A DNA stretch of 64,000 bases, from the sequence record OR352954; one strand, 5' to 3'. The translations under genes were made by a program, and so were the position numbers. The stretch comes from Escherichia phage AV124. The notes beneath the pieces are model-generated. The model did not search any database, was not told where the DNA came from, and was given only the letters and a program-made list of their open reading frames with translations. Positions 5,024-57,566 of this stretch are shown here, piece after piece; position 1 is the first letter of the stretch; each line of letters starts with the position of its first letter.

Positions 5024-6112
5024 ATGACGATTACTCGCGGCCTTATCTTCGGGAAGTTTGCACCCCTGACCAACGGGCATATTGAATTCATTCGCCAGGC
5101 GGCTTCGCAGGTTAGTGCTCTGTACCTGTTCCTGTCATATGATCAGAAATTCGTTGATGCACAACCAGAATGGATTCGTCCAAAGCTGGGGCTTGCTGAT
5201 CGTTATCGTGACCTGCTGGATGTTATTGCCGATGAGGGACTTGACAACGTGAAGGTAGACTACGTTGATGAGTCGAATATCCCAGGATACCCTGAAGGCA
5301 GTGCTGCCTATGCAAAACTGATCCGTGAAAAGCAACCGTTCGTTAAGTACGATTTTGCTTTCTCTTCTGAGCCGGAGTATGAGTCTTACTTCAGTGAGTT
5401 CTTCCCTGAAGCGAAGCATGTAGTTATCGACGCAGAACGTAAAGCTGTTCCTATCTCAGCCACGATGATCCGTAATGATCCGTACAACAACTTCTACAAC
5501 CTAGCGTGGCCTGCACGTAAGCGCTTCATGAAGAAGGTTGCCATCATTGGTGTTGAGAGTACGGGCAAGACAACCCTGACAAAACATCTGGCGCATACCT
5601 TCGGTGCTGGTTGGATTCCTGAGATCGGACGGCTTATCTGTGAGCGTGAATATCACTCCAGTGAGTTCGCAATGTCTCGTGAAGACTACCTGCGTATCGC
5701 TATGGAGCACCGCCTGAAGGAGATGGAGTTGGCTGGTTGGGGTGATCGTGGGGTTATGTTCTCTGACACCACAAACCTGATCACACACTTCTCTGGTGTT
5801 TGTGCTGATAAGATCGACTACGCAGACCTGTTGTTCCGGACACTAAGCCGTGAAGAGAGCTACAACTTCTATGACCTGTTCCTGCTCCTCACACCAGAGG
5901 TTCCGTGGGTTGCTGATCCTCTTCGCTTGCAGGATACACCAGAGAAACGTAAAGAAACCCATTCTTTGCTTGACACAATGATCAGAGCATCTTACGATAC
6001 AAGCAAGGTGGTGGTTATCTCCGGCAGTGATTACGAAGAGCGTACTCAGAGAGCTGAAGAAGCTGTCCGTAAATTGCTGAATATCAAAGGAGAACAAGAT
6101 GGATCAAACTAA
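5024..6112 (+). CDS. bifunctional NMN adenylyltransferase / ribosylnicotinamide kinase (NadR-like, no DNA-binding domain)
   Basis: N-terminal nucleotidyltransferase motif GKFAPLTNGH (HxGH type); second half has P-loop IGVESTGKTT as in the NadR kinase domain; RBS AGAGGAG. Confidence 0.8.
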   Translation: MTITRGLIFGKFAPLTNGHIEFIRQAASQVSALYLFLSYDQKFVDAQPEWIRPKLGLADRYRDLLDVIADEGLDNVKVDYVDESNIPGYPEGSAAYAKLIREKQPFVKYDFAFSSEPEYESYFSEFFPEAKHVVIDAERKAVPISATMIRNDPYNNFYNLAWPARKRFMKKVAIIGVESTGKTTLTKHLAHTFGAGWIPEIGRLICEREYHSSEFAMSREDYLRIAMEHRLKEMELAGWGDRGVMFSDTTNLITHFSGVCADKIDYADLLFRTLSREESYNFYDLFLLLTPEVPWVADPLRLQDTPEKRKETHSLLDTMIRASYDTSKVVVISGSDYEERTQRAEEAVRKLLNIKGEQDGSN

Positions 6113-6524
6113 TCTGGCAATTCTTCAGTTCTTGAAAGAGGATTTGGAGAGAACCGAGGCATGGACTTTCCACTATGTTATTGAGGAGGCCTTAGACCTC
6201 AGTCCGATGGTGGTGGACATCTCCCTCACGCAACTGGAGCAGGGTAAGATGATCACTCGCTGCCTGTGTGGTTGCAATGGCATTATGATTGCCCCTGGTG
6301 GGTATGAGGTGCTTCCAAAGCCTGAAAAGAAAGAGCAGATTCTGGTCTGGAAAACAGCACAAGGAGATGTTGTCAGGTTGACTCATATGGCAGATGATCA
6401 TCTCCGTAACGCGATGGTATGGCTTCTGGAGCAGCCCTATTTGAGCGAAGAATACGAAGGTGTTGGTATAACGACATGGCTCAAGGAGATGTCAATTGAA
6501 CTGCACAGGAGATTTTCACTATAA
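6099..6524 (+). CDS. hypothetical protein (141 aa)
   Basis: ORF overlapping the upstream stop. Confidence 0.55.
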   Translation: MDQTNLAILQFLKEDLERTEAWTFHYVIEEALDLSPMVVDISLTQLEQGKMITRCLCGCNGIMIAPGGYEVLPKPEKKEQILVWKTAQGDVVRLTHMADDHLRNAMVWLLEQPYLSEEYEGVGITTWLKEMSIELHRRFSL

Positions 6525-48942: not shown

Positions 48943-49343
48943 TTAACCCCCAAGCTTTCATTATAGATATCAACAAAGTCGTTATCCAGCCCAAACTTTT
49001 TACCCGCTTCAGATTTGTTATATGCCTGTTGTTTTTCATCGAGTCGGGATCTAAGTAAATCATTCTTAGCCTTCTCTTCTGCAAGCTGGCGACTCAGTTC
49101 ATCAGAGAAGTCTTGCTGCCCATTTTTGAAATCTTGATTTGCATATTTGTTGTTTCTCATTTGCAGAACCCATTTGTTATCCGTATCATTAACCCCACGG
49201 CTATAGGCCTGCTGTATTTGGTCATCATACCACCACTTAACTTCAAAAGCGCCCCACAGGAGCGCCAGAGAAAGGACAGCAATGATAACCAGTTTGGTGT
49301 GTCCCTTTATAAAGGTCCAAACCACACTGATAAAATTTATCAT
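48939..49343 (-). CDS. i-spanin (Rz-like)
   Basis: N-terminal TM helix followed by charged coiled-coil periplasmic domain; ATGA overlap with upstream gene. Confidence 0.6.
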   Translation of the reverse strand: MINFISVVWTFIKGHTKLVIIAVLSLALLWGAFEVKWWYDDQIQQAYSRGVNDTDNKWVLQMRNNKYANQDFKNGQQDFSDELSRQLAEEKAKNDLLRSRLDEKQQAYNKSEAGKKFGLDNDFVDIYNESLGVK

Positions 49344-50797
49344 GAGATATCCCCATCACAATCTAATAATTCAACAATAGTCACCTTATTCCGAGGAGCC
49401 TTATCTTCTCGGTTTACAGACACTCGCCCATCTCCCTCGTACTCAAGGATAAGCGGGTCTTCCACGATAACCTTAAACAGACAAGCACCAGGTTCTATAC
49501 CCCCAACGTGCCAACTCCCCTGCACCCCATTCTTGCATAGCAGCTTATACCTCTCTTGTGCAGCATCAAGATCAAAATAAATACTGATCTTATCTAGCAT
49601 CTCTGGATTGTCGATGCTATTGCTATTAAGGCCGAATACGTGTTTTTCGGTATGCGCTTGCATCATGTAAAAATGCACAGCACTAGATACAGCCCAGAAC
49701 TCCTTAAAGTACAGGCGATCGGTGTTTTTACGCAGGCGTTGGAAAACATTGAAGATATCTTTAGCTTCAAGATTGAAACGCCGTTGCCCTTTACGCTTGT
49801 CGGTGATAGTGGCAATCGTACTGATAGTAATATCCCCTGCGTTATCCAGTTTATCAAATAATCGTTCAAATGAAAACGGTTCTTTTGTATCGAAGAGTTC
49901 TTCAACGTTTGTCCCGTACATACCACTAAGATGCTTTTTGGCATCCTCCCAGCTTTCCATTTTGAGACCTGCAACGGCAACACCCAACTTCATTGTTTCT
50001 CGACGGGAGATTGTATACCCACGGGCCTCGTACTTTGACGCTCGGAGCATACTGATGATCGGGTAGTCTGTCGCTGGATTAAGAACCAACACCTTCTGTG
50101 CAGCATGTTTAAGAAAACGACTGTCAAACACCCATGTTTCATCACCAAATGAGAAGGCACCCATATTGATGGTATAGTCAAACTTATCAAAGATCTGCCC
50201 AGCGTTCTCAAATACCGAGAATGCAATGCATTGCATCACCGGATTAGAACCCTCTGAAAACATAATGCTTTTGTCTGTCATGCCGATATTACGAACATAT
50301 GAGACTTTCTCCTTTCTACTTTCGAGCAGTTTTTCAATACCATCCCAAGTCGATTCAGAGATATCAGACAGATCAAAAGGGCAGTCACTGGCAAACTTAT
50401 CTTCCATCTCCACGATCTCTTGCTTAGACACTTTCTGAGAAAGAACCTTGAATCTTGGCGCACGGGATTCCCATACCTCTTTCCCATTGTCTAAAATGAA
50501 GAAATCACGATAAACACGTTTCTCTTCATTGTATCCCTTCGTTTTAGGCGACAGGTCATGTTCACCTTTTCGTAGGTCTATGTCGATCATATAAGTAATA
50601 AAGATCTCTAGGTCATCCCATGAACGGAAGTACAGGTCGAGATCATTAACTTCCCGGTTGGTAAAGAGAGCCGTGATAGCGCCTCCTGCGATTATAACAT
50701 CGAGGCTGCGAAGGATATGGTAAATATCCTCAGAGAAAAAACTTTTTAGTAAACGGTATTCTCGAAGATGTTCACTCTTCTCGTAAGTGTGGATCAT
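49340..50797 (-). CDS. Pol-beta-superfamily nucleotidyltransferase, CCA-adding-enzyme-like head motif (485 aa)
   Basis: Start at ATG 50797 (MIHTYEK) with RBS AAAGGAGACC; motif VIIAGGAITALFTNREVNDLDLYF (GGA, 11 residues, DxD) has the same spacing as the tRNA nucleotidyltransferase / poly(A) polymerase head domain but lacks the RD of GGxVRD. Confidence 0.55.
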   Translation of the reverse strand: MIHTYEKSEHLREYRLLKSFFSEDIYHILRSLDVIIAGGAITALFTNREVNDLDLYFRSWDDLEIFITYMIDIDLRKGEHDLSPKTKGYNEEKRVYRDFFILDNGKEVWESRAPRFKVLSQKVSKQEIVEMEDKFASDCPFDLSDISESTWDGIEKLLESRKEKVSYVRNIGMTDKSIMFSEGSNPVMQCIAFSVFENAGQIFDKFDYTINMGAFSFGDETWVFDSRFLKHAAQKVLVLNPATDYPIISMLRASKYEARGYTISRRETMKLGVAVAGLKMESWEDAKKHLSGMYGTNVEELFDTKEPFSFERLFDKLDNAGDITISTIATITDKRKGQRRFNLEAKDIFNVFQRLRKNTDRLYFKEFWAVSSAVHFYMMQAHTEKHVFGLNSNSIDNPEMLDKISIYFDLDAAQERYKLLCKNGVQGSWHVGGIEPGACLFKVIVEDPLILEYEGDGRVSVNREDKAPRNKVTIVELLDCDGDIS

Positions 50798-50829: not shown

Positions 50830-50864
50830 GTACCAGAAAAAGAAAAGCCCCGCAAGAGCGGGGC
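50830..50864 (-). terminator. rho-independent terminator between tRNA array and nucleotidyltransferase gene
   Basis: On the minus strand: hairpin GCCCCGC-TCTT-GCGGGGC followed by TTTTCTTTTTCT. Confidence 0.55.
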
Positions 50865-50908: not shown

Positions 50909-50984
50909 TGGTTGCGAGCAGCGGAATCGAACCCCTCTGAACAAGCTTATGAGACTCGTGAATTCACCAGAATTCTAGCTCGCA
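50909..50984 (-). tRNA. tRNA-Met/Ile2 (anticodon CAT)
   Basis: Cloverleaf read by eye: acceptor TGCGAGC/GCTCGCA, D-arm GAAT-TCTGGTGA-ATTC, anticodon stem CGAGT/GCTTG with wobble pairs, loop CTCATAA, T-loop TTCGATT; CCA encoded. Confidence 0.7.
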
Positions 50985-50990
50985 ATTGTT

Positions 50991-51067
50991 TGGCGGGACG
51001 GGGTGGATTCGAACCACCGACACCATGATCTTCAATCAAGTGCTCTACCAAACTGAGCTACCGACCC
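50991..51067 (-). tRNA. tRNA-Phe (GAA)
   Basis: D-arm GCTC-AGTTTGGTA-GAGC, anticodon loop TTGAAGA, T-arm GGTGG-TTCGAAT-CCACC; CCA encoded. Confidence 0.75.
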
Positions 51068-51073
51068 GATGTG

Positions 51074-51158
51074 TGGTGGGCAAGGAGAGACTCGAACTCT
51101 CACGTCATAGGACGCCAGAACCTAAATCTGGTGCGTCTACCAATTTCGCCACTTGCCC
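51074..51158 (-). tRNA. tRNA-Leu (TAG)
   Basis: Anticodon arm CCAGA-TTTAGGT-TCTGG, long variable arm, T-loop TTCGAGT; CCA encoded. Confidence 0.75.
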
Positions 51159-51403
51159 TAATCGATCCTTCGGGAGAATGCCACCCTCGGACAAATACCA
51201 TGATAAGCACTTATAGGCAATATACTCATCAATCCTCGCTCCGTTTTGATATCGTTACCGCCACAAGGACGCATTGCGAACCATCAATATCCGAAGACTC
51301 GCCTTATCGTTGTACACCGAGTCGGGCTTCCTCTTTATTAGTTTGCTCTGTTACGCCACACGTAAATCCTGCAAGCCAGAAGGTCTCTACAGGAGAGCAA
51401 ATA

Positions 51404-51476
51404 TGGTGTGGATGGAAGGACTCGAACCTACATCAAACGGCTTCGTAGACCGTTGCCTGTCCGTCAGGACACCCAC
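51404..51476 (-). tRNA. tRNA-Arg (ACG)
   Basis: Anticodon arm ACGGT-CTACGAA-GCCGT, T-loop TTCGAGT, acceptor GTGGGTG/CATCCAC; CCA encoded. Confidence 0.75.
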
Positions 51477-51482
51477 ATAATT

Positions 51483-51559
51483 TGGTCTCCATAGAGTGAC
51501 TCGAACACTCAACCTCCTGGTCCCAAACCAGGCGCTCTACACTATTGAGCTACACGGAG
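51483..51559 (-). tRNA. tRNA-Pro (TGG)
   Basis: D-arm GCTC-AATAGTGTA-GAGC, anticodon arm CCTGG-TTTGGGA-CCAGG, T-arm GAGTG-TTCGAGT-CACTC; CCA encoded. Confidence 0.8.
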
Positions 51560-51657
51560 AGAAGTGCAGAATTTTAATTATCCCAGACACTGCAACTGGT
51601 ATTGCTGGCTAGCTAATAAGTTCTCCAAGCAAAGTTTTAATTTGCAAGGAGGATGTT

Positions 51658-51734
51658 TGGCGGGACCGAAGGGAATCGAACCCTCATTTTCCGCATCGAC
51701 AGTGCGGCACCATTACCTTGTCAGCCACGGCCCC
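51658..51734 (-). tRNA. tRNA-Asp (GTC)
   Basis: Anticodon arm CCGCA-CTGTCGA-TGCGG, T-loop TTCGATT, acceptor GGGGCCG/CGGTCCC; CCA encoded. Confidence 0.8.
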
Positions 51735-51741
51735 ATAAATT

Positions 51742-51826
51742 TGGCGACGAGCGTAGGAATTGAACCTACATAGAGCTAATGCTCGCGGATTAACAGTCCG
51801 CCGTTCTACCAATGAACCAGCTCGTC
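51742..51826 (-). tRNA. tRNA-Asn (GTT) with enlarged variable region
   Basis: D-arm GTTC-ATTGGTA-GAAC and anticodon arm GCGGA-CTGTTAA-TCCGC; variable region is 15 nt with a GAGC-ATTA-GCTC mini-hairpin; CCA encoded. Confidence 0.65.
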
Positions 51827-51886
51827 ATTTAAATACTTTATCAGTGAAAACAACCTTTTGCAAGAATTATTTTAACTGATTTAATT

Positions 51887-51962
51887 TGGCGGGAAGGGAA
51901 GGATTTTAACCCATCGTCTCTTCGCTTAAAAAGCGAATGCCTGACCGCTCGGCTACCTACCC
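51887..51962 (-). tRNA. tRNA-Lys (TTT)
   Basis: Anticodon arm TTCGC-TTTTTAA-GCGAA, T-loop TTAAAAT; acceptor has one mismatch; CCA encoded. Confidence 0.65.
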
Positions 51963-51970
51963 ATATTGTT

Positions 51971-52059
51971 TGGAGGAGAGCAACAGAATCGAACTGTCAC
52001 CGTATCTCTACGGTGGGACCGGGTTCAAACCGGAGCCTGCACCATGCAGCCTGCTCTCC
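51971..52059 (-). tRNA. tRNA-Ser (TGA)
   Basis: Anticodon arm CCGG-TTTGAAC-CCGG, long variable arm, T-loop TTCGATT; CCA encoded. Confidence 0.7.
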
Positions 52060-52064
52060 AAAAT

Positions 52065-52150
52065 TGGCGGAAGATGCAAGGGTTGAACTTGCACACCCTT
52101 TCGGATGGCGGTTTAGCAAACCGCTGTGGCTACCATTTCACCAATCTTCC
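52065..52150 (-). tRNA. tRNA-Ser (GCT)
   Basis: Anticodon arm GCGGT-TTGCTAA-ACCGC, long variable arm, T-arm GCAAG-TTCAACC-CTTGC; CCA encoded. Confidence 0.75.
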
Positions 52151-52296
52151 AATTGTTCTTTAATTTCTTTACGAAGATCTGCTTTTTCTTTCGCACGAGT
52201 AATAGGGACTGATTGAATCTCTTCTGCAACACCACAGTTACTACCGTGAAGTCTACAGCGTCCAAACACTTTCTTGCAACGCAAAAGTTTCTGCAT
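52138..52296 (-). CDS. small Cys-containing protein inside the tRNA array (52 aa)
   Basis: Start at internal ATG 52296 (MQKLLRCKKVFGRCRLHGSNCGV...) with RBS GGAGG at 4-nt spacing; three Cys in 13 residues; the 3-prime end of the frame runs into the adjacent tRNA-Ser. Confidence 0.35.
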   Translation of the reverse strand: MQKLLRCKKVFGRCRLHGSNCGVAEEIQSVPITRAKEKADLRKEIKEQLEDW

Positions 52297-52311
52297 AAAT
52301 CCTCCATAAAG

Positions 52312-52401
52312 TGGCGGAGAAGGAGAGAATTGAACTCTCAAGCCGTTTTACCAGTCAGCACCTTTCCAAGGTGTTTTCGTCACCTATCGATTTGCTTCTC
52401 C
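52312..52401 (-). tRNA. atypical type-II tRNA, possibly tRNA-Ser (GGA)
   Basis: Acceptor GGAGAAG/CTTCTCC and T-arm GAGAG-TTCAATT-CTCTC are clear; candidate anticodon arm ACACC-TTGGAAA-GGTGC; D-arm irregular; 90 nt; CCA encoded. Confidence 0.45.
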
Positions 52402-52405
52402 ATAT

Positions 52406-52482
52406 TGGGGTGGCTAGTGGGACTCGAACCCACATAGGACTGCCTCACAAGCAGTGTCATTATCCAGTTATGATATAGCCAC
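52406..52482 (-). tRNA. tRNA-His (GTG)
   Basis: Anticodon arm ACTGC-TTGTGAG-GCAGT, T-arm GTGGG-TTCGAGT-CCCAC; CCA encoded. Confidence 0.7.
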
Positions 52483-52554
52483 ATCAAAAGGCACTCCCAG
52501 CTTTCGGGTGAATTTCAAGAGCGGCTGCGCAACCACTTGAAGTACCTTTTGATA

Positions 52555-52630
52555 TGGCAGGAAGATCAGGACTTGAACCTGAACTACGGATTTCAAAGAC
52601 CCGTGTGCTAACCAATTACACCATCTTCCT
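52555..52630 (-). tRNA. tRNA-Gln (TTG)
   Basis: Anticodon arm CGGGT-CTTTGAA-ATCCG, T-loop TTCAAGT, D-arm GTGT-AATTGGTTAG-CACA; CCA encoded. Confidence 0.75.
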
Positions 52631-52785
52631 ATAATCGGTGAGGGCGCCTGAAACCGAGCCAGGCTAAGTATTGGACTGCAATCCTCAACTTATTTTGTTG
52701 CCGCCATGCTTACTTATGACCGACAAGAGTTCCCGTTGCAGCGGTAGATCATAGTCATTTTCAACATCCGGTCGCCCCCATTATT

Positions 52786-52859
52786 TGGAGCGTCTAGAGG
52801 GAATCGAACCCTACTCTGCGAGGCTTGGAAGGCCTGCGACACACCTCGTGCTTAGACGC
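52786..52859 (-). tRNA. tRNA-Trp (CCA)
   Basis: Anticodon arm AGGCC-TTCCAAG-GGCCT, T-loop TTCGATT; CCA encoded. Confidence 0.7.
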
Positions 52860-52866
52860 TTTAAAT

Positions 52867-52941
52867 TGGTGGGAGTATCTGGGATCGAACCAGAGACCTC
52901 TCGATTATCGGTCGAGCGTTCTACCGCTGAACTATACTCCC
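52867..52941 (-). tRNA. tRNA-Ile (GAT)
   Basis: D-arm GTTC-AGCGGTA-GAAC, anticodon arm CTCGA-CCGATAA-TCGAG, T-arm TCTGG-TTCGATC-CCAGA; CCA encoded. Confidence 0.8.
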
Positions 52942-53074
52942 ATTAATTGGTGCGCCCCTTTATAAAAATGTCTTCAAGCGGAGTCTTTATTGAAACAATA
53001 AATTTACTCACTCACCTAATCTTATTTTTACTCAGATGGACGTCTTTAGCGGAGCGTCCTCCACCTTCTTCGTT

Positions 53075-53161
53075 TGGTACGCCGTGATAGAGTCGAACTA
53101 CCCGAGCCTTTTGAGCAACAGATTTACAGTCTGTCCCGCTACCCCTACGGTCTAACGGCGC
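53075..53161 (-). tRNA. tRNA-Tyr (GTA)
   Basis: Anticodon arm ACAGA-CTGTAAA-TCTGT, long variable arm, T-loop TTCGACT; CCA encoded. Confidence 0.7.
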
Positions 53162-53163
53162 AT

Positions 53164-53514
53164 TTAGCCTTGTTTGAACTGAACAATATCTGTTGTGAAT
53201 GGCTTACTCATAGGAGTAGATTTCTTATCATCAACATTAGTTGTTTCAGCTTCTTCATTCTCTTCATCGAAGTAATCAGAAAGCATTTGTTCACCTTTCT
53301 CAATTACAAATCGAGCAATATTTTCCCTGATGTTGTCCTTTGTTGTGGCGCTTGTCATAAGGTCTTTTAGCACTTTATGAGCATCAGGAATCATAGCAAT
53401 CATATTGGTCTTAAGGTCAAGGATATTCTTCTCAAGCTGAATAGCATTAGACTCTTCTTTAAGGGGTCTACCTTTTCCTCTACGACGCTTTGTAAGTTGT
53501 TGTTTTACTGCCAT
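53164..53514 (-). CDS. hypothetical acidic protein inside the tRNA array (116 aa)
   Basis: ORF with ATG start; Lys/Glu-rich. Confidence 0.5.
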   Translation of the reverse strand: MAVKQQLTKRRRGKGRPLKEESNAIQLEKNILDLKTNMIAMIPDAHKVLKDLMTSATTKDNIRENIARFVIEKGEQMLSDYFDEENEEAETTNVDDKKSTPMSKPFTTDIVQFKQG

Positions 53515-53599
53515 AATAACCCCACTTATTAATATTATCAGATTTAAATTTATCTGTCAAGGGTCATTTTATCATTTTTTATAAAAATATTCAACAACT

Positions 53600-53674
53600 T
53601 GGAGCACGGTAGGTGAATCGAACACCTGACATTTCTTTTGCAGAGAAAGCTGTTGCCACTCCAGCAACCGTGCT
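53600..53674 (-). tRNA. tRNA-Cys (GCA)
   Basis: Anticodon arm TTTCT-CTGCAAA-AGAAA, T-arm AGGTG-TTCGATT-CACCT; CCA encoded. Confidence 0.75.
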
Positions 53675-53789
53675 TTCGGGGGACCCGATTATTTCAATTC
53701 GCTTCCACACATTCGGGTCAAGACGTGTCCTATAGTCTTTCGACGCTTCCACAGCTCGGAGTAAACCCGTCCCGGCTGTCCTGTGAATT

Positions 53790-53871
53790 TGGCGAAGGCG
53801 GCAGGATTCGAACCCGCATACTCCAATTACTCGATTAACGACGGGTTAGAAGCCCGTTGAGATACGCCCTC
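53790..53871 (-). tRNA. atypical tRNA-like gene (anticodon-like loop TCT, no recognisable D-arm)
   Basis: Acceptor GAGGGCG/CGCCTTC and T-arm GCGGG-TTCGAAT-CCTGC are clear; only one further hairpin ACGGG-CTTCTAA-CCCGT, followed by a 23-nt unpaired region; CCA encoded. Confidence 0.4.
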
Positions 53872-53877
53872 TTAAAC

Positions 53878-53966
53878 TGGTGCGGGATGAGGGATTCGAA
53901 CCCTCAAGGCCTAGAGGCCTACGAAGTCTTAAGCCTCGTGTGTACTGCCAATACCACCAATCCCGC
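53878..53966 (-). tRNA. tRNA-Leu (TAA)
   Basis: Anticodon arm CGAGG-CTTAAGA-CTTCG, long variable arm, T-arm GAGGG-TTCGAAT-CCCTC; CCA encoded. Confidence 0.75.
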
Positions 53967-54148
53967 AGAAATCTATTTTGTGAAGTCCCGATGTCCTGAC
54001 AACCGCCGTTGTCTCTCCGAAGCGCCTCTACTTGCGAAGAAGAGCCTACGCCATCCCTTTCATCAACTTGATATCAAAGCCGACACAGAGATCACACCCC
54101 ACTAGATGCAGGAGATTTTAAGTGTTTCAGAACCTCGCAGAATAGATT

Positions 54149-54257
54149 TGGAGCAGGGTGGTGGAATCTAACCACCTATGTATTTAGCCATGCTGTTAGT
54201 TCTGGCATATTTTTCAGGTCTGGATGGACCTCGCGGTTGACAAACCGCCTACCCTGC
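54149..54257 (-). tRNA. oversized tRNA-like gene (109 nt) with internal insertion
   Basis: Acceptor GCAGGGT/ACCCTGC, D-arm GCGG-TTTGTCAA-CCGC, T-arm GGTGG-TTAGATT-CCACC; stem AGGTC/GACCT closes a 6-nt loop; about 37 extra nt before the T-arm; CCA encoded. Confidence 0.35.
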
Positions 54258-54259
54258 AT

Positions 54260-54334
54260 TGGCTTCTCGAACAGGAATCGAACCTGTACCGTCCCTATCG
54301 TGGGACCGCTCTAACCAAAGTAAGCTATCGAGAA
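54260..54334 (-). tRNA. tRNA-like gene with 6-nt anticodon-position loop
   Basis: Acceptor TTCTCGA/TCGAGAA, D-arm GCTT-ACTTTGGTTA-GAGC, T-arm ACAGG-TTCGATT-CCTGT; stem GTCCC/GGGAC closes loop ACGATA; CCA encoded. Confidence 0.5.
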
Positions 54335-54340
54335 ATTGTT

Positions 54341-54416
54341 TGGTGCTCGCAGTAGGACTTGAACCCACGACCTTCTCCTTACAAGGGAGTTGCTCTACCA
54401 ACTGAGCTATACGAGC
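54341..54416 (-). tRNA. tRNA-Thr (TGT)
   Basis: D-arm GCTC-AGTTGGTA-GAGC, anticodon loop CTTGTAA, T-arm GTGGG-TTCAAGT-CCTAC; CCA encoded. Confidence 0.75.
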
Positions 54417-54817
54417 AAGAAATGCTGTTTCCGATTAACAGCCTGGAGGAGTCAGTTAGCCATATCTTGTGAGCTAAGATCCTATATCCAGGATTTAAGT
54501 AATCAAAGAAATTTTAGCTTTATGGTTTAGAAGTTTCAAGTTTAAACATTAAGCTTTGAACGATAATCTTTGAATGCTGAATGTTGAAGTCTTTCGAATT
54601 CGCGATTCGACAATTTCGATCAAGCCGCATCATTGTGCGGTCTGACGGAAAGATATGTTTAAGTATCATCCTATACGATTATGTTCGGAGCAGTTTAACC
54701 TCCGGCCCCGGTAGAGGCAAGATGTTTCTGACTTCGCTAACCAAAAACAGCATTTAAAAACTTTACCAGCTATCCACAGGAATTACAAGATGTTAATCAA
54801 GAATTCCTGCAAATATT

Positions 54818-55465
54818 TTAGATTGATCCTTCAATCTCTACTTCAGTCCGTGCATTTGACTCGGAAAGAACAAAGTCAACGTTAGACTTAAAGTCTTCAA
54901 TCTCTGCTTCCAGAGAACGAATGCGATCTGCCAGGCCCAGTGGATCGACAATGGAAGGAGTTCCCATGCTACGAACTGGCGCTTCTACTACAGCCAACTG
55001 TGCAGCGTCTGGCGCTTTATCACGTTGGACATATGGAGCACGAGCTGCTTCAAGCTTCGCTTCGAATTCCTGTGTATCACGGTTCAGGCGAACCTGAGCA
55101 TGATTATACTGAGACTTCAGTTTGCCAAGCAGAAGCTCTTTGAAAACGATGGTGCGTTTACGCTCAATCGCCTGAGCTACGGTCATAGACTCGCCAGCGA
55201 TCTCAACTTTTGTTACAGCGTTTGACTGAACAACTTTCGCCTTCAGGTCGTCGCGAACAGCCAGAAGATCCTGAACACCCTGGAAGTCTGCCTGAGCAGA
55301 TTTCTCGAAGTCCTCAACGCTCTGGATAGAGCCTGGGATCTGACGGTTTGCGTCAGTGCCTTTCGCGATGTGAATCGTGTTCAGCGCTTCGATACGCTTC
55401 TGAATCTTTTCCTCAACCTTGGTCAGGGTAGCCAGAGCGCGGGTTACAGACATCTTAGTAGACAT
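54818..55465 (-). CDS. coiled-coil protein (215 aa)
   Basis: Ala/Glu/Lys/Arg-rich heptad-like sequence. Confidence 0.5.
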   Translation of the reverse strand: MSTKMSVTRALATLTKVEEKIQKRIEALNTIHIAKGTDANRQIPGSIQSVEDFEKSAQADFQGVQDLLAVRDDLKAKVVQSNAVTKVEIAGESMTVAQAIERKRTIVFKELLLGKLKSQYNHAQVRLNRDTQEFEAKLEAARAPYVQRDKAPDAAQLAVVEAPVRSMGTPSIVDPLGLADRIRSLEAEIEDFKSNVDFVLSESNARTEVEIEGSI

Positions 55466-55539
55466 AGAATTCTCCTCTCATGAAATTTAAAATTTAAGTT
55501 ACTTCAAATATTTGCCGACATCCGTGTCGGCACTACGCA

Positions 55540-56151
55540 TTAGTTTTTGCCAGTATTAACAACTACGCCCTGGCGGTTAGCATCAGCTTTTGCGATTTCC
55601 AGACGGGTTTCGCGTTCAGCCTTCAGATCACCACGCGCTGCTTCAAGCTGTTCGGTCAGCATTGCAATGCGGTCATCCTTAGCCTTGCTATTAGCAGTAA
55701 GTTCTGCAATTGCAACCTTGTGAGCAGATTCCAGATTTGCCTTAACCGCATTCAGTTCGATTGCAGCGCTACGTTTAACGTCGGCAACTGCGCTTTCTAC
55801 AGCTTCAGCATTGTTCTGCTGAGAGATCGCCAGCTCTGCACGAAGGTCTTCAACAACACCCGGTTCTACAGCTACAAGGCCGCGAGATTTCAGGATAGAG
55901 TTCAGAACGGAATCTTCGTTTTCCAGAACTTTGATCTTCAGCTTGGATTTTTCTTCAGCCAGTTTTTCGTTGAACTGAACTTCAATTTGTCCCAGTTCCT
56001 GCTGCTTAAACTGAATTTCCTGACTGATCTTTTCAGACCCTTCTGCCAGAGATTGCAGTTCAGCGACTACTTTAGTCAGACCAGTAGCGGCAGTGGTTAC
56101 TGCTTTAGTGGCACGTTCAGTTACGGAAATTACAGTTTTAGAATCAGTCAT
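55540..56151 (-). CDS. coiled-coil protein (203 aa)
   Basis: Ala/Glu/Lys-rich heptad-like sequence. Confidence 0.5.
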   Translation of the reverse strand: MTDSKTVISVTERATKAVTTAATGLTKVVAELQSLAEGSEKISQEIQFKQQELGQIEVQFNEKLAEEKSKLKIKVLENEDSVLNSILKSRGLVAVEPGVVEDLRAELAISQQNNAEAVESAVADVKRSAAIELNAVKANLESAHKVAIAELTANSKAKDDRIAMLTEQLEAARGDLKAERETRLEIAKADANRQGVVVNTGKN

Positions 56152-56189
56152 TAAGTTATCCTTTGCGTTAAATTAGGTTTTAAATACTA

Positions 56190-56330
56190 CACTTACAGAT
56201 TGTGTTTGTCAAGCGAATCTTTGATTATTTCTTCGGTGGTAGGGTTGTTTTCAAACCATGACCAATAATACCAAAGAACAAGCAGGAAAGAGATCACTGA
56301 CATGATGATGAAGATAACACCGACACTCAT
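56190..56330 (-). CDS. small membrane peptide (46 aa)
   Basis: Below the track cutoff; translated by eye (MSVGVIFIIMSVISFLLVLWYYWSWF...); ATGA overlap with upstream gene. Confidence 0.4.
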
Positions 56331-56515
56331 CGTACAACGTCCTTAATGGAGTCACAAACTTCACCAACGACGTCTGCGGTAGGTGATACGACAATCTCAT
56401 CAGCGGCGTCAAAAACTTCTGCGGCTACATCTACAAAAGGTTCTGCAACAGTTGCAGTGACAACAACAGCAGTACCAACAATATCGCCAGCCATACGTAA
56501 TAATGTCCCTAACAT
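56327..56515 (-). CDS. small acidic protein (62 aa)
   Basis: Start at internal ATG (MLGTLLR) with RBS AAGGAGAA. Confidence 0.45.
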   Translation of the reverse strand: MLGTLLRMAGDIVGTAVVVTATVAEPFVDVAAEVFDAADEIVVSPTADVVGEVCDSIKDVVR

Positions 56516-56642
56516 TTTGTTCTCCTTTTGGTTCCGATTTGAAACGAGAGCACTTTCGTCCATTTAAGCTATCGCCCTGTGCCACTACGCGAGCCGGTCC
56601 AGCAAGAACGGGAGTCGAACCCGTATCTCTCTCATTTCAAAT

Positions 56643-56717
56643 TTGGTGGGGCATGAAGGATTCGAACCTTAGACAAACCGATTAAGAGTCTGCTACTCTA
56701 CCACTGAGTTAATACCC
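56643..56717 (-). tRNA. tRNA-Lys (CTT), anticodon stem imperfect
   Basis: Acceptor GGGGTAT/ATGCCCC, D-arm ACTC-AGTGGTA-GAGT, T-loop TTCGAAT, anticodon loop CTCTTAA with one stem mismatch; CCA encoded. Confidence 0.6.
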
Positions 56718-56782
56718 CGAAATAAGATCCGTGTTTTTAAAGACGTTTCACGGAATCGTCATTGTTCCCCATGCCGGAGGAA

Positions 56783-57094
56783 TTATTTTTTCTTCTTACC
56801 ATTTGGAGCTACGGTTTCAATAACCTTAGCTTCCTTCACTTTACCAGCACGTTCACGTTTTGTCTTACCTGTGCGAACACGGTAAGATGCAGAGATAATC
56901 TGACCACCCTCAATGCGGGTTTCTGACTTGTATTCACCCTTACGGCGATCAAATACCGAAACAGTCTTCTCTACACCACCAAGACGTACATCATGCGGAG
57001 CAGAATGCGTCTGAGTAGACTTTGACTCAAACTGGAAAGGCTGTTTGATAGCGTCAATAGCAGATACTTTCTTAGTAGAATTTTTCTTAGTCAT
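56783..57094 (-). CDS. basic hypothetical protein (103 aa)
   Basis: ORF with Lys/Arg-rich termini. Confidence 0.5.
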   Translation of the reverse strand: MTKKNSTKKVSAIDAIKQPFQFESKSTQTHSAPHDVRLGGVEKTVSVFDRRKGEYKSETRIEGGQIISASYRVRTGKTKRERAGKVKEAKVIETVAPNGKKKK

Positions 57095-57186
57095 AATTTT
57101 CTCCTTTGCATTTTATTTGGGAATTTCTCCCGTTTATGTTCATGAGGATATTAACTCAATCAATTATCCTCGTCAACATTTTTTAA

Positions 57187-57264
57187 TTGGTGACCCCCGG
57201 AGGATTCGAACCTACCTACCTCTCGATTATGAGTCGATTGCTCATACCTTATGAGCTTGAGGGC
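57187..57264 (-). tRNA. tRNA-Met/Ile2 (CAT)
   Basis: Anticodon loop CTCATAA, T-loop TTCGAAT, acceptor GGCCCTC/GGGGGTC with wobble pairs; CCA encoded. Confidence 0.65.
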
Positions 57265-57267
57265 CTT

Positions 57268-57340
57268 ATCGTTCAGAGTGGACTTGAACCACTGACCTTA
57301 TCCGTATGAAGAACATGCTCTACCAACTAAGCTACTGAAC
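57268..57340 (-). tRNA. tRNA-Met/Ile2 (CAT), no encoded CCA
   Basis: Acceptor CGTTCAG/CTGAACG, D-arm GCTT-AGTTGGTA-GAGC, anticodon arm TGTTC-TTCATAC-GGATA, T-arm AGTGG-TTCAAGT-CCACT; 3-prime end lacks CCA. Confidence 0.65.
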
Positions 57341-57365
57341 GGTTGTACTGTTGATGTGGTAGATA

Positions 57366-57566
57366 TTATAGATTGCCTGTTTCATTGTCAACGTCTTTTT
57401 TACTATTCTCGCAAATAAAACAGAAAATTTCTCTTTTAGGACCTATGTACTCCTTCCCGCAGTTAGTACAGGCTGAATGATAATACATACCCCGCAGACT
57501 TTCACCAGGCCAGTCTCTTTCAGAGAATGCGATGCAGTGATTGGAATTAGAAGTCTGGGTGCTCAT
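57366..57566 (-). CDS. small zinc-ribbon protein (66 aa)
   Basis: Start at internal ATG (MSTQTSN...); two CxxC pairs (CTNC ... CFIC). Confidence 0.45.
   Translation of the reverse strand: MSTQTSNSNHCIAFSERDWPGESLRGMYYHSACTNCGKEYIGPKREIFCFICENSKKDVDNETGNL

Follow-up and report, generated by a model that had tools for sequence, protein, structure and literature searches.

The 64-kb window considered here, a stretch of 64,000 nucleotides (nt) of Escherichia phage AV124 (sequence record OR352954), contains an array of transfer RNA (tRNA) genes at positions 57341-50909, every one of which is encoded on the minus strand. It is very likely that this array is the cluster of tRNA genes belonging to a phage of Klebsiella-type enterobacteria, of the genus Mydovirus (Vequintavirinae), and that its multi-tRNA precursors would supplement the tRNA pool of the host. 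Searches of the window with ARAGORN and Rfam identified 25 tRNA-shaped elements in total, 22 of them canonical and three aberrant, and the identity of the genes is supported because ARAGORN and the Rfam covariance models agree on genes and anticodons. An initial annotation had proposed an array of about 25 genes at 50909-57340; the number and the start of this interval stand, with the qualification that only 22 of the elements are canonical tRNAs, and its end was one base short, the true end being 57341.

Composition and signals of the tRNA array

At default settings ARAGORN reported 21 tRNA genes, all located within 50909-57341 on the minus strand, and the -ps90 setting added Gly(UCC) at 52786-52859 and a third CAU tRNA at 57188-57265. 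In a scan of the whole window, the gathering score of the Rfam model RF00005 (29 bits) was reached by 16 of ARAGORN's default genes; with more permissive filters and sub-regions, 21 elements scored at least 29 bits, with E-values down to 5e-14. An element was counted as a tRNA where it scored at least 29 bits against RF00005 or was called by ARAGORN at default settings, so that Ser(GGA) and Ser(UGA), both of which are default ARAGORN calls, are included; only Gly(UCC) and a 110-nt element fall short of both thresholds. A canonical decoder was defined by a 7-nt anticodon loop, U33, a purine at position 37 and the presence of a D-arm. These features are combined in 22 genes and are not combined in 54334-54260 (loop ACGAUA), 54258-54149 (loop CAUCCA) and 53871-53790 (which lacks the D-arm). 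A 3' CCA is encoded by 24 of the 25 elements, the sole exception being the first gene (57341-57269), in agreement with the initial statement that almost all genes carry it. The elements are listed below in their order along the minus strand.

57269..57341 (-): tRNA-Met(CAU); ARAGORN, Rfam 62.6 bits
57188..57265 (-): tRNA(CAU) of the Ile2 type; Rfam 42.3 bits, ARAGORN at -ps90 only
56644..56718 (-): tRNA-Lys(CUU); ARAGORN, Rfam 58.8 bits
54341..54416 (-): tRNA-Thr(UGU); ARAGORN, Rfam 69.8 bits
54260..54334 (-): aberrant tRNA-like gene, 75 nt, 6-nt loop; ARAGORN 'tRNA-???', Rfam 39.8 bits, anticodon arm disrupted
54149..54258 (-): 110-nt CCA-ended tRNA-like RNA; matches only the tRNA-Sec model, 22.1 bits (threshold 47), cloverleaf fold
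53878..53966 (-): tRNA-Leu(UAA); ARAGORN, Rfam 46.9 bits
53790..53871 (-): aberrant Arg(UCU)-derived element; Rfam 34.9 bits, D-arm deleted
53600..53673 (-): tRNA-Cys(GCA); ARAGORN, Rfam 54.6 bits
53075..53161 (-): tRNA-Tyr(GUA), class II; ARAGORN, Rfam 31.0 bits
52867..52941 (-): tRNA-Ile(GAU); ARAGORN, Rfam 69.4 bits
52786..52859 (-): probable tRNA-Gly(UCC), low-scoring; ARAGORN at -ps90 only, Rfam below the gathering score
52555..52630 (-): tRNA-Gln(UUG); ARAGORN, Rfam 64.1 bits
52406..52482 (-): tRNA-His(GUG); ARAGORN, Rfam 51.5 bits
52312..52401 (-): tRNA-Ser(GGA); default ARAGORN, only the Sec model listed in Rfam, 27.8 bits
52065..52150 (-): tRNA-Ser(GCU); ARAGORN, Rfam 48.6 bits
51971..52059 (-): tRNA-Ser(UGA); default ARAGORN, only the Sec model listed in Rfam, 35.5 bits
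51887..51962 (-): tRNA-Lys(UUU); ARAGORN, Rfam 50.5 bits
51742..51826 (-): tRNA-Asn(GUU), 85 nt; ARAGORN, Rfam 61.7 bits
51658..51734 (-): tRNA-Asp(GUC); ARAGORN, Rfam 54.8 bits
51483..51559 (-): tRNA-Pro(UGG); ARAGORN, Rfam 61.8 bits
51404..51476 (-): tRNA-Arg(ACG), short D-arm; ARAGORN, Rfam 34.8 bits
51074..51158 (-): tRNA-Leu(UAG); ARAGORN, Rfam 57.4 bits
50991..51067 (-): tRNA-Phe(GAA); ARAGORN, Rfam 61.9 bits
50909..50984 (-): tRNA-Met(CAU); ARAGORN, Rfam 37.6 bits

The canonical set comprises three genes with a CAU anticodon (57341-57269, 57265-57188 and 50984-50909), three tRNA-Ser (GGA, GCU and UGA), two tRNA-Lys (CUU and UUU), two tRNA-Leu (UAA and UAG) and 12 tRNAs represented by a single gene each (Thr, Cys, Tyr, Ile, Gly, Gln, His, Asn, Asp, Pro, Arg and Phe). 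Covariance-model and ARAGORN searches supported most of the genes and anticodons of the initial annotation, including the CAU, Ser, Lys and Leu genes in the numbers given above as well as Phe, Pro, Asp, Asn, His, Gln, Ile(GAU), Tyr, Cys and Thr. A tRNA-Trp had also been claimed; in the gene concerned (52859-52786) the stem AGGC/GCCU closes the loop CUUCCAA, and because this loop reads UCC the gene is reassigned to Gly, hence Gly is present and Trp is absent from the array. The reported lack of Ala, Val and Glu tRNAs was borne out, while that of Gly was not. As for the two Arg-like tRNAs, Arg(ACG) at 51476-51404 is canonical, but the other candidates are aberrant, with ACG located in the 6-nt loop of 54334-54260 in one case and the Arg(UCU)-derived 53871-53790 in the other. 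Approximately ten extra ARAGORN calls, obtained with introns allowed at a low threshold, were discarded as artefacts, as their introns span hundreds of nt and the calls fall on both strands and overlap real genes; plus-strand Rfam matches (Plastid-ycf2 and others) are mirror images of the tRNAs and all far below threshold.

Several of the canonical genes are unusual in structure. The minimum-free-energy fold of the Gly(UCC) gene is weak and not a cloverleaf, and phage DP carries an identical gene that is annotated as tRNA-Gly; an 8/4 tRNA was ruled out as a model for it, since neither the discriminator base nor the CCA is retained in that register. The tRNA-His(GUG) gene has no encoded G-1 (T at position -1) and retains C73, as do the His genes of relatives (T or C at -1), and its allele differs from that of the five relatives compared. 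The tRNA-Asn(GUU) possesses an extra 4-bp variable-arm hairpin (GAGC AUUA GCUC), an uncommon feature in an Asn tRNA, and at minimum free energy it folds into a clean cloverleaf with the extra arm (z = -4.3). The homologue in the Seunavirus phage FENT2 shows compensatory changes in the acceptor and anticodon stems with the same type of extra arm, VIK251 has a different, 89-nt allele that also bears an extra arm, and Mydo has a normal 75-nt allele.

The three CAU genes were assigned on structural grounds. Bacterial initiator tRNA-fMet is marked by mismatched C1/A72, by A11-U24 and by an anticodon stem with three G-C pairs in a row. None of these hallmarks is found in the three genes, which have C1-G72, G1-C72 and U1-A72 at the end of the acceptor stem and no GGG/CCC run. 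The genes 57341-57269 (paired C1-G72, C11-G24, anticodon stem without three successive G-C pairs) and 50984-50909 (U1-A72, G2-C71, C3-G70) are elongator-like and, by these structural rules, are read as elongator tRNA-Met genes; searches of E. coli genomes with these two were uninformative, returning only Val and Ile tRNA matches for one and none for the other. For 57265-57188, the best E. coli matches are genes annotated as tRNA-Ile with a CAT anticodon, to which it is 75.6% identical along its entire length and with which it shares the same CGACUCAUAAUCG anticodon arm, and its homologue in phage DP is annotated as tRNA-Ile. A CAU anticodon here sits on a tRNA body akin to those of known tRNA-Ile(CAT) genes. 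In common with E. coli tRNA-Ile2 (ileX/ileY) it has CAU in the loop CUCAUAA and the acceptor pairs C4-G69 and C5-G68, while it differs from it in its length of 78 nt, a larger D-loop and an A27/G43 mismatch. This gene is read as an Ile2-type decoder of AUA, probably modified with lysidine and, by implication, dependent on host TilS.

Candidate signals for transcription lie at both ends of the array and within it. A sigma-70-like promoter (TTGACA-17 nt-TAATAT, 10 of 12 consensus matches) is located at 57363..57391 on the minus strand, its -10 hexamer ending approximately 20 nt upstream of the first tRNA, and four further promoter-like sites, which are consensus matches only, occur at 57176-57148, 56212-56184, 54539-54511 and 53560-53532. 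The array had been described as closed by a terminator, and indeed a strong intrinsic terminator (GCCCCGC TCTT GCGGGGC followed by a T-run; 50837..50864, minus strand, hairpin at 50864-50847) is found 45 nt past the last tRNA.

Predicted function and codon usage

Transcription from the host-type sigma-70 promoters would generate multi-tRNA precursors that end at the single intrinsic terminator. Host RNase P and 3'-end nucleases would then cut these precursors at the short A/T-rich spacers of 3-8 nt which follow each CCA, and the mature tRNAs would be charged by host synthetases. During infection the phage tRNAs may in this way top up or replace the host pool, mainly for A-ending and rare codons, i.e. 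AUA, ACA, CUA, CCA, GGA, CAA, UCA and UUA, which are far commoner in the 45% G+C phage than in hosts of 52-55% G+C. Phages T4 and T5 likewise possess clustered tRNA genes, the polycistronic precursors of which are processed by host RNase P. The T4 cluster is interspersed with small stable RNAs having tRNA-like 3' domains and that of T5 with homing endonucleases; in sequence, the Vequintavirinae arrays are not known to share more than general tRNA similarity with those of T4 and T5, and their set is larger than the eight tRNAs of T4.

Codon usage in the window (44.9% G+C) was compared with that of a 49-kb segment of E. coli K-12 (52.0% G+C) and of one Raoultella locus (55.0% G+C), which are proxies and not the true host. 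These were adopted because a SecA-anchored genome scan for host sequence, from which 80 loci were kept, yielded no Klebsiella pneumoniae. As a share of the codons of the respective amino acid, ATA accounts for 16-17% in the phage against 4% in the proxies, ACA for 33-34% against 7-10%, CTA for 8-9% against 2-5%, CCA for 28-30% against 10-18% and GGA for 19-20% against 8%, and a stricter set of 39 minus-strand open reading frames (ORFs) of at least 150 amino acids (aa) gave the same fractions. The log2 ratios of phage to Raoultella usage are +4.4 for AGA, +2.3 for AGG and ACA, +2.0 for ATA and CTA, +1.5 for CTT, +1.4 for CCA and +1.3 for GGA, TCT and GCT. Watson-Crick cognates among the phage tRNAs exist for ACA, ATA, CTA, CCA, GGA, CAA, TCA and TTA. 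The initial annotation had proposed to compare the anticodon set with phage and host codon usage, and this comparison gave a divided result: codons served by such a cognate are more phage-enriched against the Raoultella proxy (mean log2 +0.71 vs -0.03, one-sided Mann-Whitney p = 0.02), but the same test against the E. coli proxy was not significant (p = 0.15).

The latter result is one of several points that count against the proposed supplementation of the host pool. The strongly enriched codons of Ala (GCA and GCU) and Val (GUA and GUU), Leu CUU and Pro CCU have no Watson-Crick phage tRNA. The most phage-enriched codon of all, AGA, makes up 24% of Arg codons compared to 1-3% in the proxies, and it is served here only by the D-arm-less element 53871-53790, which may be non-working. 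Several genes look sub-optimal, namely the three aberrant elements, Gly with its low score and His with its missing G-1, and the expression, processing and charging of the array are themselves predictions from sequence. The fit of the tRNA set to codon usage is thus partial and modest.

Aberrant elements, relatives and neighbouring genes

In the 110-nt element (54258-54149) the acceptor stem has 7 bp, the D-stem has 6 bp and a tetraloop, and a 5-bp stem closes the 6-nt loop CAUCCA. A variable region of approximately 39 nt that includes a hairpin, a 5-bp T-stem with its T-loop, U73 and CCA complete the element. Its minimum-free-energy fold is this cloverleaf (z = -3.75); it is a complete cloverleaf, unlike the T4 small RNAs with their mere tRNA-like 3' domain. 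When 16 sequences of this family, drawn from Mydovirus, Seunavirus, Henunavirus and uncultivated phages, were aligned, standard pairs were formed in 350 of 350 pair cells and eight pairs change on both sides, whereas sliding the partners by 1-3 columns as a control reduces pairing to 35-49%. The hairpin of the variable arm is rebuilt from unrelated sequence in different lineages, while its single-stranded flanks, GAAAA(U)A (GAAAAUA in the window) and AAUACAUA, are invariant. The element is present in 60 phage records from three genera as well as in metagenomes, and in every locus in which the neighbours were checked it adjoins tRNA-Thr(UGU) or sits one gene off. Among the 42 record rows listed, mostly nothing is annotated under the element, and several show a hypothetical or unknown-function protein.

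The loop is CAUCCA in most family members and CCUCCA, CCGCCA, CAGCCA, CUUCCA or CCUCAA in others, while homologues in Henunavirus and several metagenomic lineages have a 7-nt loop, [C/U]AUCAAA (UCA, with A33), and those of other metagenomic contigs have the canonical-looking loops UUUUUAA and UUUAUAA (UUU and UAU). The label 'tRNA-TERM/sup(tca)' in Hena1 and pEp_SNUABM_01 arises because the loop [C/U]AUCAAA occurs there. An opal suppressor tRNA, as implied by this label, was rejected for the window, in which the loop is CAUCCA; nor is the loop conserved in the family. Nor is the element a tRNA-Sec, for which at least 47 bits against RF01852, a UCA anticodon and an 8/5 acceptor/T branch were required: it scores 22.1 bits, has the loop CAUCCA and shows a 7/5 branch. 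The allo-tRNAs, treated together with tRNA-Sec-like tRNAs by Mukai et al. (2017), are defined by an 8/4 or 9/3 branch (PMC5389517). With these the element shares the 6-bp D-stem and tetraloop, the long variable arm and U73, and the family shares an anticodon that varies between members (UCA, UUU and UAU among the homologues); in contrast, its branch is 7/5 in 16 of 16 aligned sequences, its 6-nt CAUCCA loop has no U33 and no assignable anticodon, and its variable region is longer and has the invariant flanks. Our best guess from these comparisons is that the element represents a structured, CCA-ended RNA under selection, which would not decode normally in this phage.

The gene preceding it, 54334-54260, has intact acceptor, D and T arms and CCA, and a perfect 5-bp anticodon stem closes the loop ACGAUA, which lacks U33. 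Homologues in Mydovirus relatives are mis-annotated as tRNA-Ser and those of Seunavirus are called Ile(GAU); the latter have the loops AAGAUUC, ACGAUUA and ACGAUUC, again without U33, and with U37. In the Seunavirus comparison the changes in the acceptor stem are compensatory and one homologue has an 8-nt loop, while in other Seunavirus phages the slot is occupied by an unrelated Arg(GCG) gene. Judged from this comparison, 54334-54260 is a member of a conserved family with a non-canonical anticodon loop.

The third aberrant element, 53871-53790, retains a normal acceptor stem, anticodon arm (loop CUUCUAA, UCU), T-arm and CCA, with 5 nt in place of the D-arm and approximately 23 nt between the anticodon arm and the T-arm; its minimum-free-energy fold is not a cloverleaf. 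The 98-nt 'Arg(UCU)' called by ARAGORN in Mydo and DP was rejected as a model for it, as its borrowed acceptor strand overlaps tRNA-Leu and contains mismatches. In phage KP12 a 496-nt block interrupts the homologue after nt 52; this block carries the genes for a 133-aa HNH endonuclease and for a canonical tRNA-Arg(UCU), and beyond it come the last 25 nt of the element. In Seunavirus and Henunavirus phages a canonical Arg(UCU) occupies the slot. Because of the split in KP12 and the canonical gene in the other genera, the element is read as a probable relic of a tRNA-Arg(UCU) gene at the site of a homing-endonuclease cassette. Some residual function is possible because AGA is heavily used and the element is 100% identical in four relatives, the flanks of which differ by 3-4%.

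Comparison with other phages indicates that arrays of this kind are already known and that the sequence of this one is nearly so. A nucleotide search with the 7.5-kb region matched 498 phage records, 14 of which cover at least 80% of the query; identity to Klebsiella phage VLCpiM5b is 96.3% over 87% of the length, and KPP-1, KB57, DP, VIK251 and Proteus phage Mydo are similarly close, all belonging to Vequintavirinae and most being assigned to Mydovirus. The records of relatives annotate the same tRNAs in the same order, and Vequintavirinae are known to carry 16-26 tRNAs; genome reports list 17 for KPP-1 (PMC9862379) and 26 for KPP-X1 (PMC13064021). The clusters of VLCpiM5b, KPP-1, KB57, Mydo, DP and VIK251, of the Seunavirus phages PVP-SE1 and FENT2 and of the Henunavirus phage Hena1 share strand, gene order and embedded ORFs with the window, as well as a position between genes for nicotinamide adenine dinucleotide (NAD) salvage on one side and the gene for a 485-aa protein, the spanin genes, the terminase and the structural block on the other; in the Mydovirus clusters the genes are 95-100% identical to those of the window.

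Against this background, five genomes that are 95-98% identical elsewhere differ in the array by whole tRNA modules. Unlike every close relative examined, the window lacks Glu(UUC) and Trp(CCA); it carries a 74-nt Gly allele in common with DP, and at the slot of 50984-50909 Mydo, DP and VIK251 have an 82-nt gene called Ala(GGC) instead. No HNH gene is present in the window's array, whereas HNH endonuclease genes lie inside the array in Mydo, DP and KP12, between tRNAs in the first two, and many spacers of 3-8 nt in the window measure 60-140 nt in relatives. In four of four close relatives Gly, Glu(UUC) and Trp(CCA) precede Gln, with spacers of 71-82 nt and 116 nt; in the window, Gly is joined straight to the spacer that follows Trp in the relatives, 344 nt being deleted. 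The junction coincides with a shared post-CCA spacer motif, CCA(A/G)ATAATG (52775-52800 in the window; 5965-5978 and 6309-6322 of the reverse-complemented DP locus), which indicates that the Glu and Trp genes have been lost here by a 344-nt deletion between repeats of the post-CCA spacer. Two further features of the array contain tRNA relics:

56600..56640 (-): tRNA relic after Lys(CUU), consisting of a T-arm (ACGGG TTCGACT CCCGT) and a 3' acceptor strand; kept in relatives
52942..53074 (-): 133-nt spacer module between Tyr and Ile

The relic has neither CCA nor a 5' half, and a search for T-arm motifs revealed just this one further fragment (near 56624). The module ends in a tRNA-like 3' end, GGGGCGCACCA (52942-52960); it is absent at this site from four Mydovirus relatives and FENT2, in which the Tyr-Ile gap is 6 nt, and VIK251 has a homologue at a different place in its array. 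These comparisons show the cluster to be a recombination hot-spot, in which tRNA modules, HNH homing-endonuclease cassettes and tRNA relics vary among relatives. A scan of IMG/VR anchored on the 3' end of tRNA-Leu returned only four loci, too few for an analysis of polymorphism.

Eight small or medium-sized ORFs are embedded in the array, all of them in PHROG families conserved in these phages; by PHROG label one is a tail fiber protein, one a membrane protein and six are of unknown function. The four located within 54818..56515 belong to phrog_9123, 14349, 9325 and 1491. The features concerned, together with the gene that comes straight after the array terminator, are as follows.

56783..57094 (-): ORF of 103 aa; phrog_6662, E-value 3e-53, no Pfam match
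56327-56515 (-): ORF of 62 aa; PHROGs match, annotated in relatives too
56193-56330 (-): ORF of 45 aa, membrane protein; PHROGs match, annotated in relatives too
55540-56151 (-): ORF of 203 aa; PHROGs match, annotated in relatives too
54818-55465 (-): ORF of 215 aa, PHROGs label 'tail fiber protein'; annotated in relatives too
53164..53514 (-): ORF of 116 aa; phrog_3330, own promoter-like site at 53560-53532
52138..52296 (-): ORF of 52 aa between two Ser tRNAs; phrog_17355, E-value 2e-39
49340..50797 (-): 485-aa protein, outside the array; phrog_16176, weak nucleotidyltransferase match to phrog_1614 (E-value 2e-6)

Non-coding spacers of 116-400 nt are also found inside the array on the minus strand (51159-51403, 52631-52785, 53674-53789, 53967-54148 and 54417-54817) and are kept in relatives. 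By homology to VLCpiM5b, the array is preceded on the same strand by small ORFs and NAD-salvage genes (nicotinamide phosphoribosyl transferase and ribose-phosphate pyrophosphokinase) and followed by the 485-aa protein, spanins, the large terminase subunit and head and tail genes. The initial placement between early-type genes and the structural block is borne out by this arrangement, the timing of expression being suggested by gene content.

The 485-aa gene is conserved across Vequintavirinae, and its homologues carry PF26128; the protein itself has no match in the copy of Pfam-A used and no sequence match in the PDB. Class II CCA-adding enzymes and poly(A) polymerase have a pol-beta nucleotidyltransferase head domain with the motifs GG...DxD and RDFTxN; the conserved motifs of this protein, of the class II nucleotidyltransferase kind, are AGG..T..F..ND.D.YF (GG..DLD), FDFTxN (FDFTIN) and LRxxKYxxRGY. 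In a Foldseek search with its AlphaFold model (predicted local distance difference test (pLDDT) score of 80), matches in the PDB were weak (best E-value 1.7e-3, template-modelling (TM) score ~0.3, probability ~1.0 for the best); 35 of the top 36 are CCA-adding enzymes, related tRNA nucleotidyltransferases or poly(A) polymerase, and FAM46B/TENT5B is at rank 9. From PHROGs, the motifs and the fold search, the protein is predicted to resemble class II CCA-adding enzymes and poly(A) polymerase.

Competing explanations and significance

Two other explanations of the array were weighed against supplementation of the host pool for codon matching. Counter-defence may be its main role, the phage tRNAs replacing host tRNAs that are degraded or cut by anticodon nucleases (PrrC, PARIS AriB, retron effectors, colicin-like or Schlafen-type enzymes) and the altered loops acting as resistance or decoys. 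This is compatible with the preferred explanation, and we consider it somewhat unlikely as the principal role. Experimental support for such a role exists in other phages (PMC10264068, PMC11464382, PMC11555353), and here the set spans nearly all amino acids, including the non-enriched codons GAC, CAC, UAC, AAC and UUC, two conserved members (54334-54260 and 54258-54149) have anticodon loops without U33, and the genome group encodes a T4 Rnl1-like RNA ligase too. However, the proposal is made for this phage from its sequence, and where a loop has 6 nt or lacks U33, loss of decoding is a likelier outcome than its preservation.

A less probable explanation still is that a sizeable part of the array constitutes evolutionary baggage, shuffled by free-standing HNH homing endonucleases and unequal recombination, with the D-arm-less Arg(UCU) element, the 6-nt-loop element, the low-scoring Gly and the T-arm relic as decaying, functionless pseudogenes. 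The D-arm-less element flanks a cassette of HNH and canonical tRNA-Arg genes in KP12, a T-arm relic lies at ~56624 and a tRNA 3' end at 52942-52960, array content differs between genomes that are 95-98% identical, and Glu and Trp, both of which are present in close relatives, were lost here without obvious harm. Opposed to this are the strength of most genes, which are intact tRNAs with CCA kept, and the complete identity of the D-arm-less element in four relatives despite the divergence of its flanks. Moreover, 54334-54260 and 54258-54149 are each maintained in more than one genus and show compensatory substitutions, which points to selection on structure.

We tentatively suggest, at rather less than an even chance, that 54334-54260 and above all 54258-54149 may represent conserved families of CCA-ended phage tRNA-like RNAs and not decaying tRNAs, which the annotations and papers checked do not describe as such. 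In some lineages the 110-nt family would then serve in decoding or suppression of an unconventional kind; alternatively, it would not decode and would be, for example, a decoy for, or a regulator of, proteins of the host or phage that bind tRNA.

With supplementation of the host pool retained as the best explanation, the gain over the known array consists in a corrected inventory, with Gly(UCC) in place of Trp, 22 canonical and three aberrant elements and neither Glu nor Trp, and in a concrete picture of how such an array may change, i.e. by deletion between post-CCA spacer repeats and by HNH cassettes that split a tRNA gene and bring a replacement. It also provides a lead in the form of a strongly covarying 110-nt RNA, found in metagenomes and in no fewer than 60 phage genomes from three genera, which is mostly unannotated or labelled as a suppressor tRNA or hypothetical protein. 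If this RNA does have a function of its own, it would bear on the question of what phage tRNA clusters serve.

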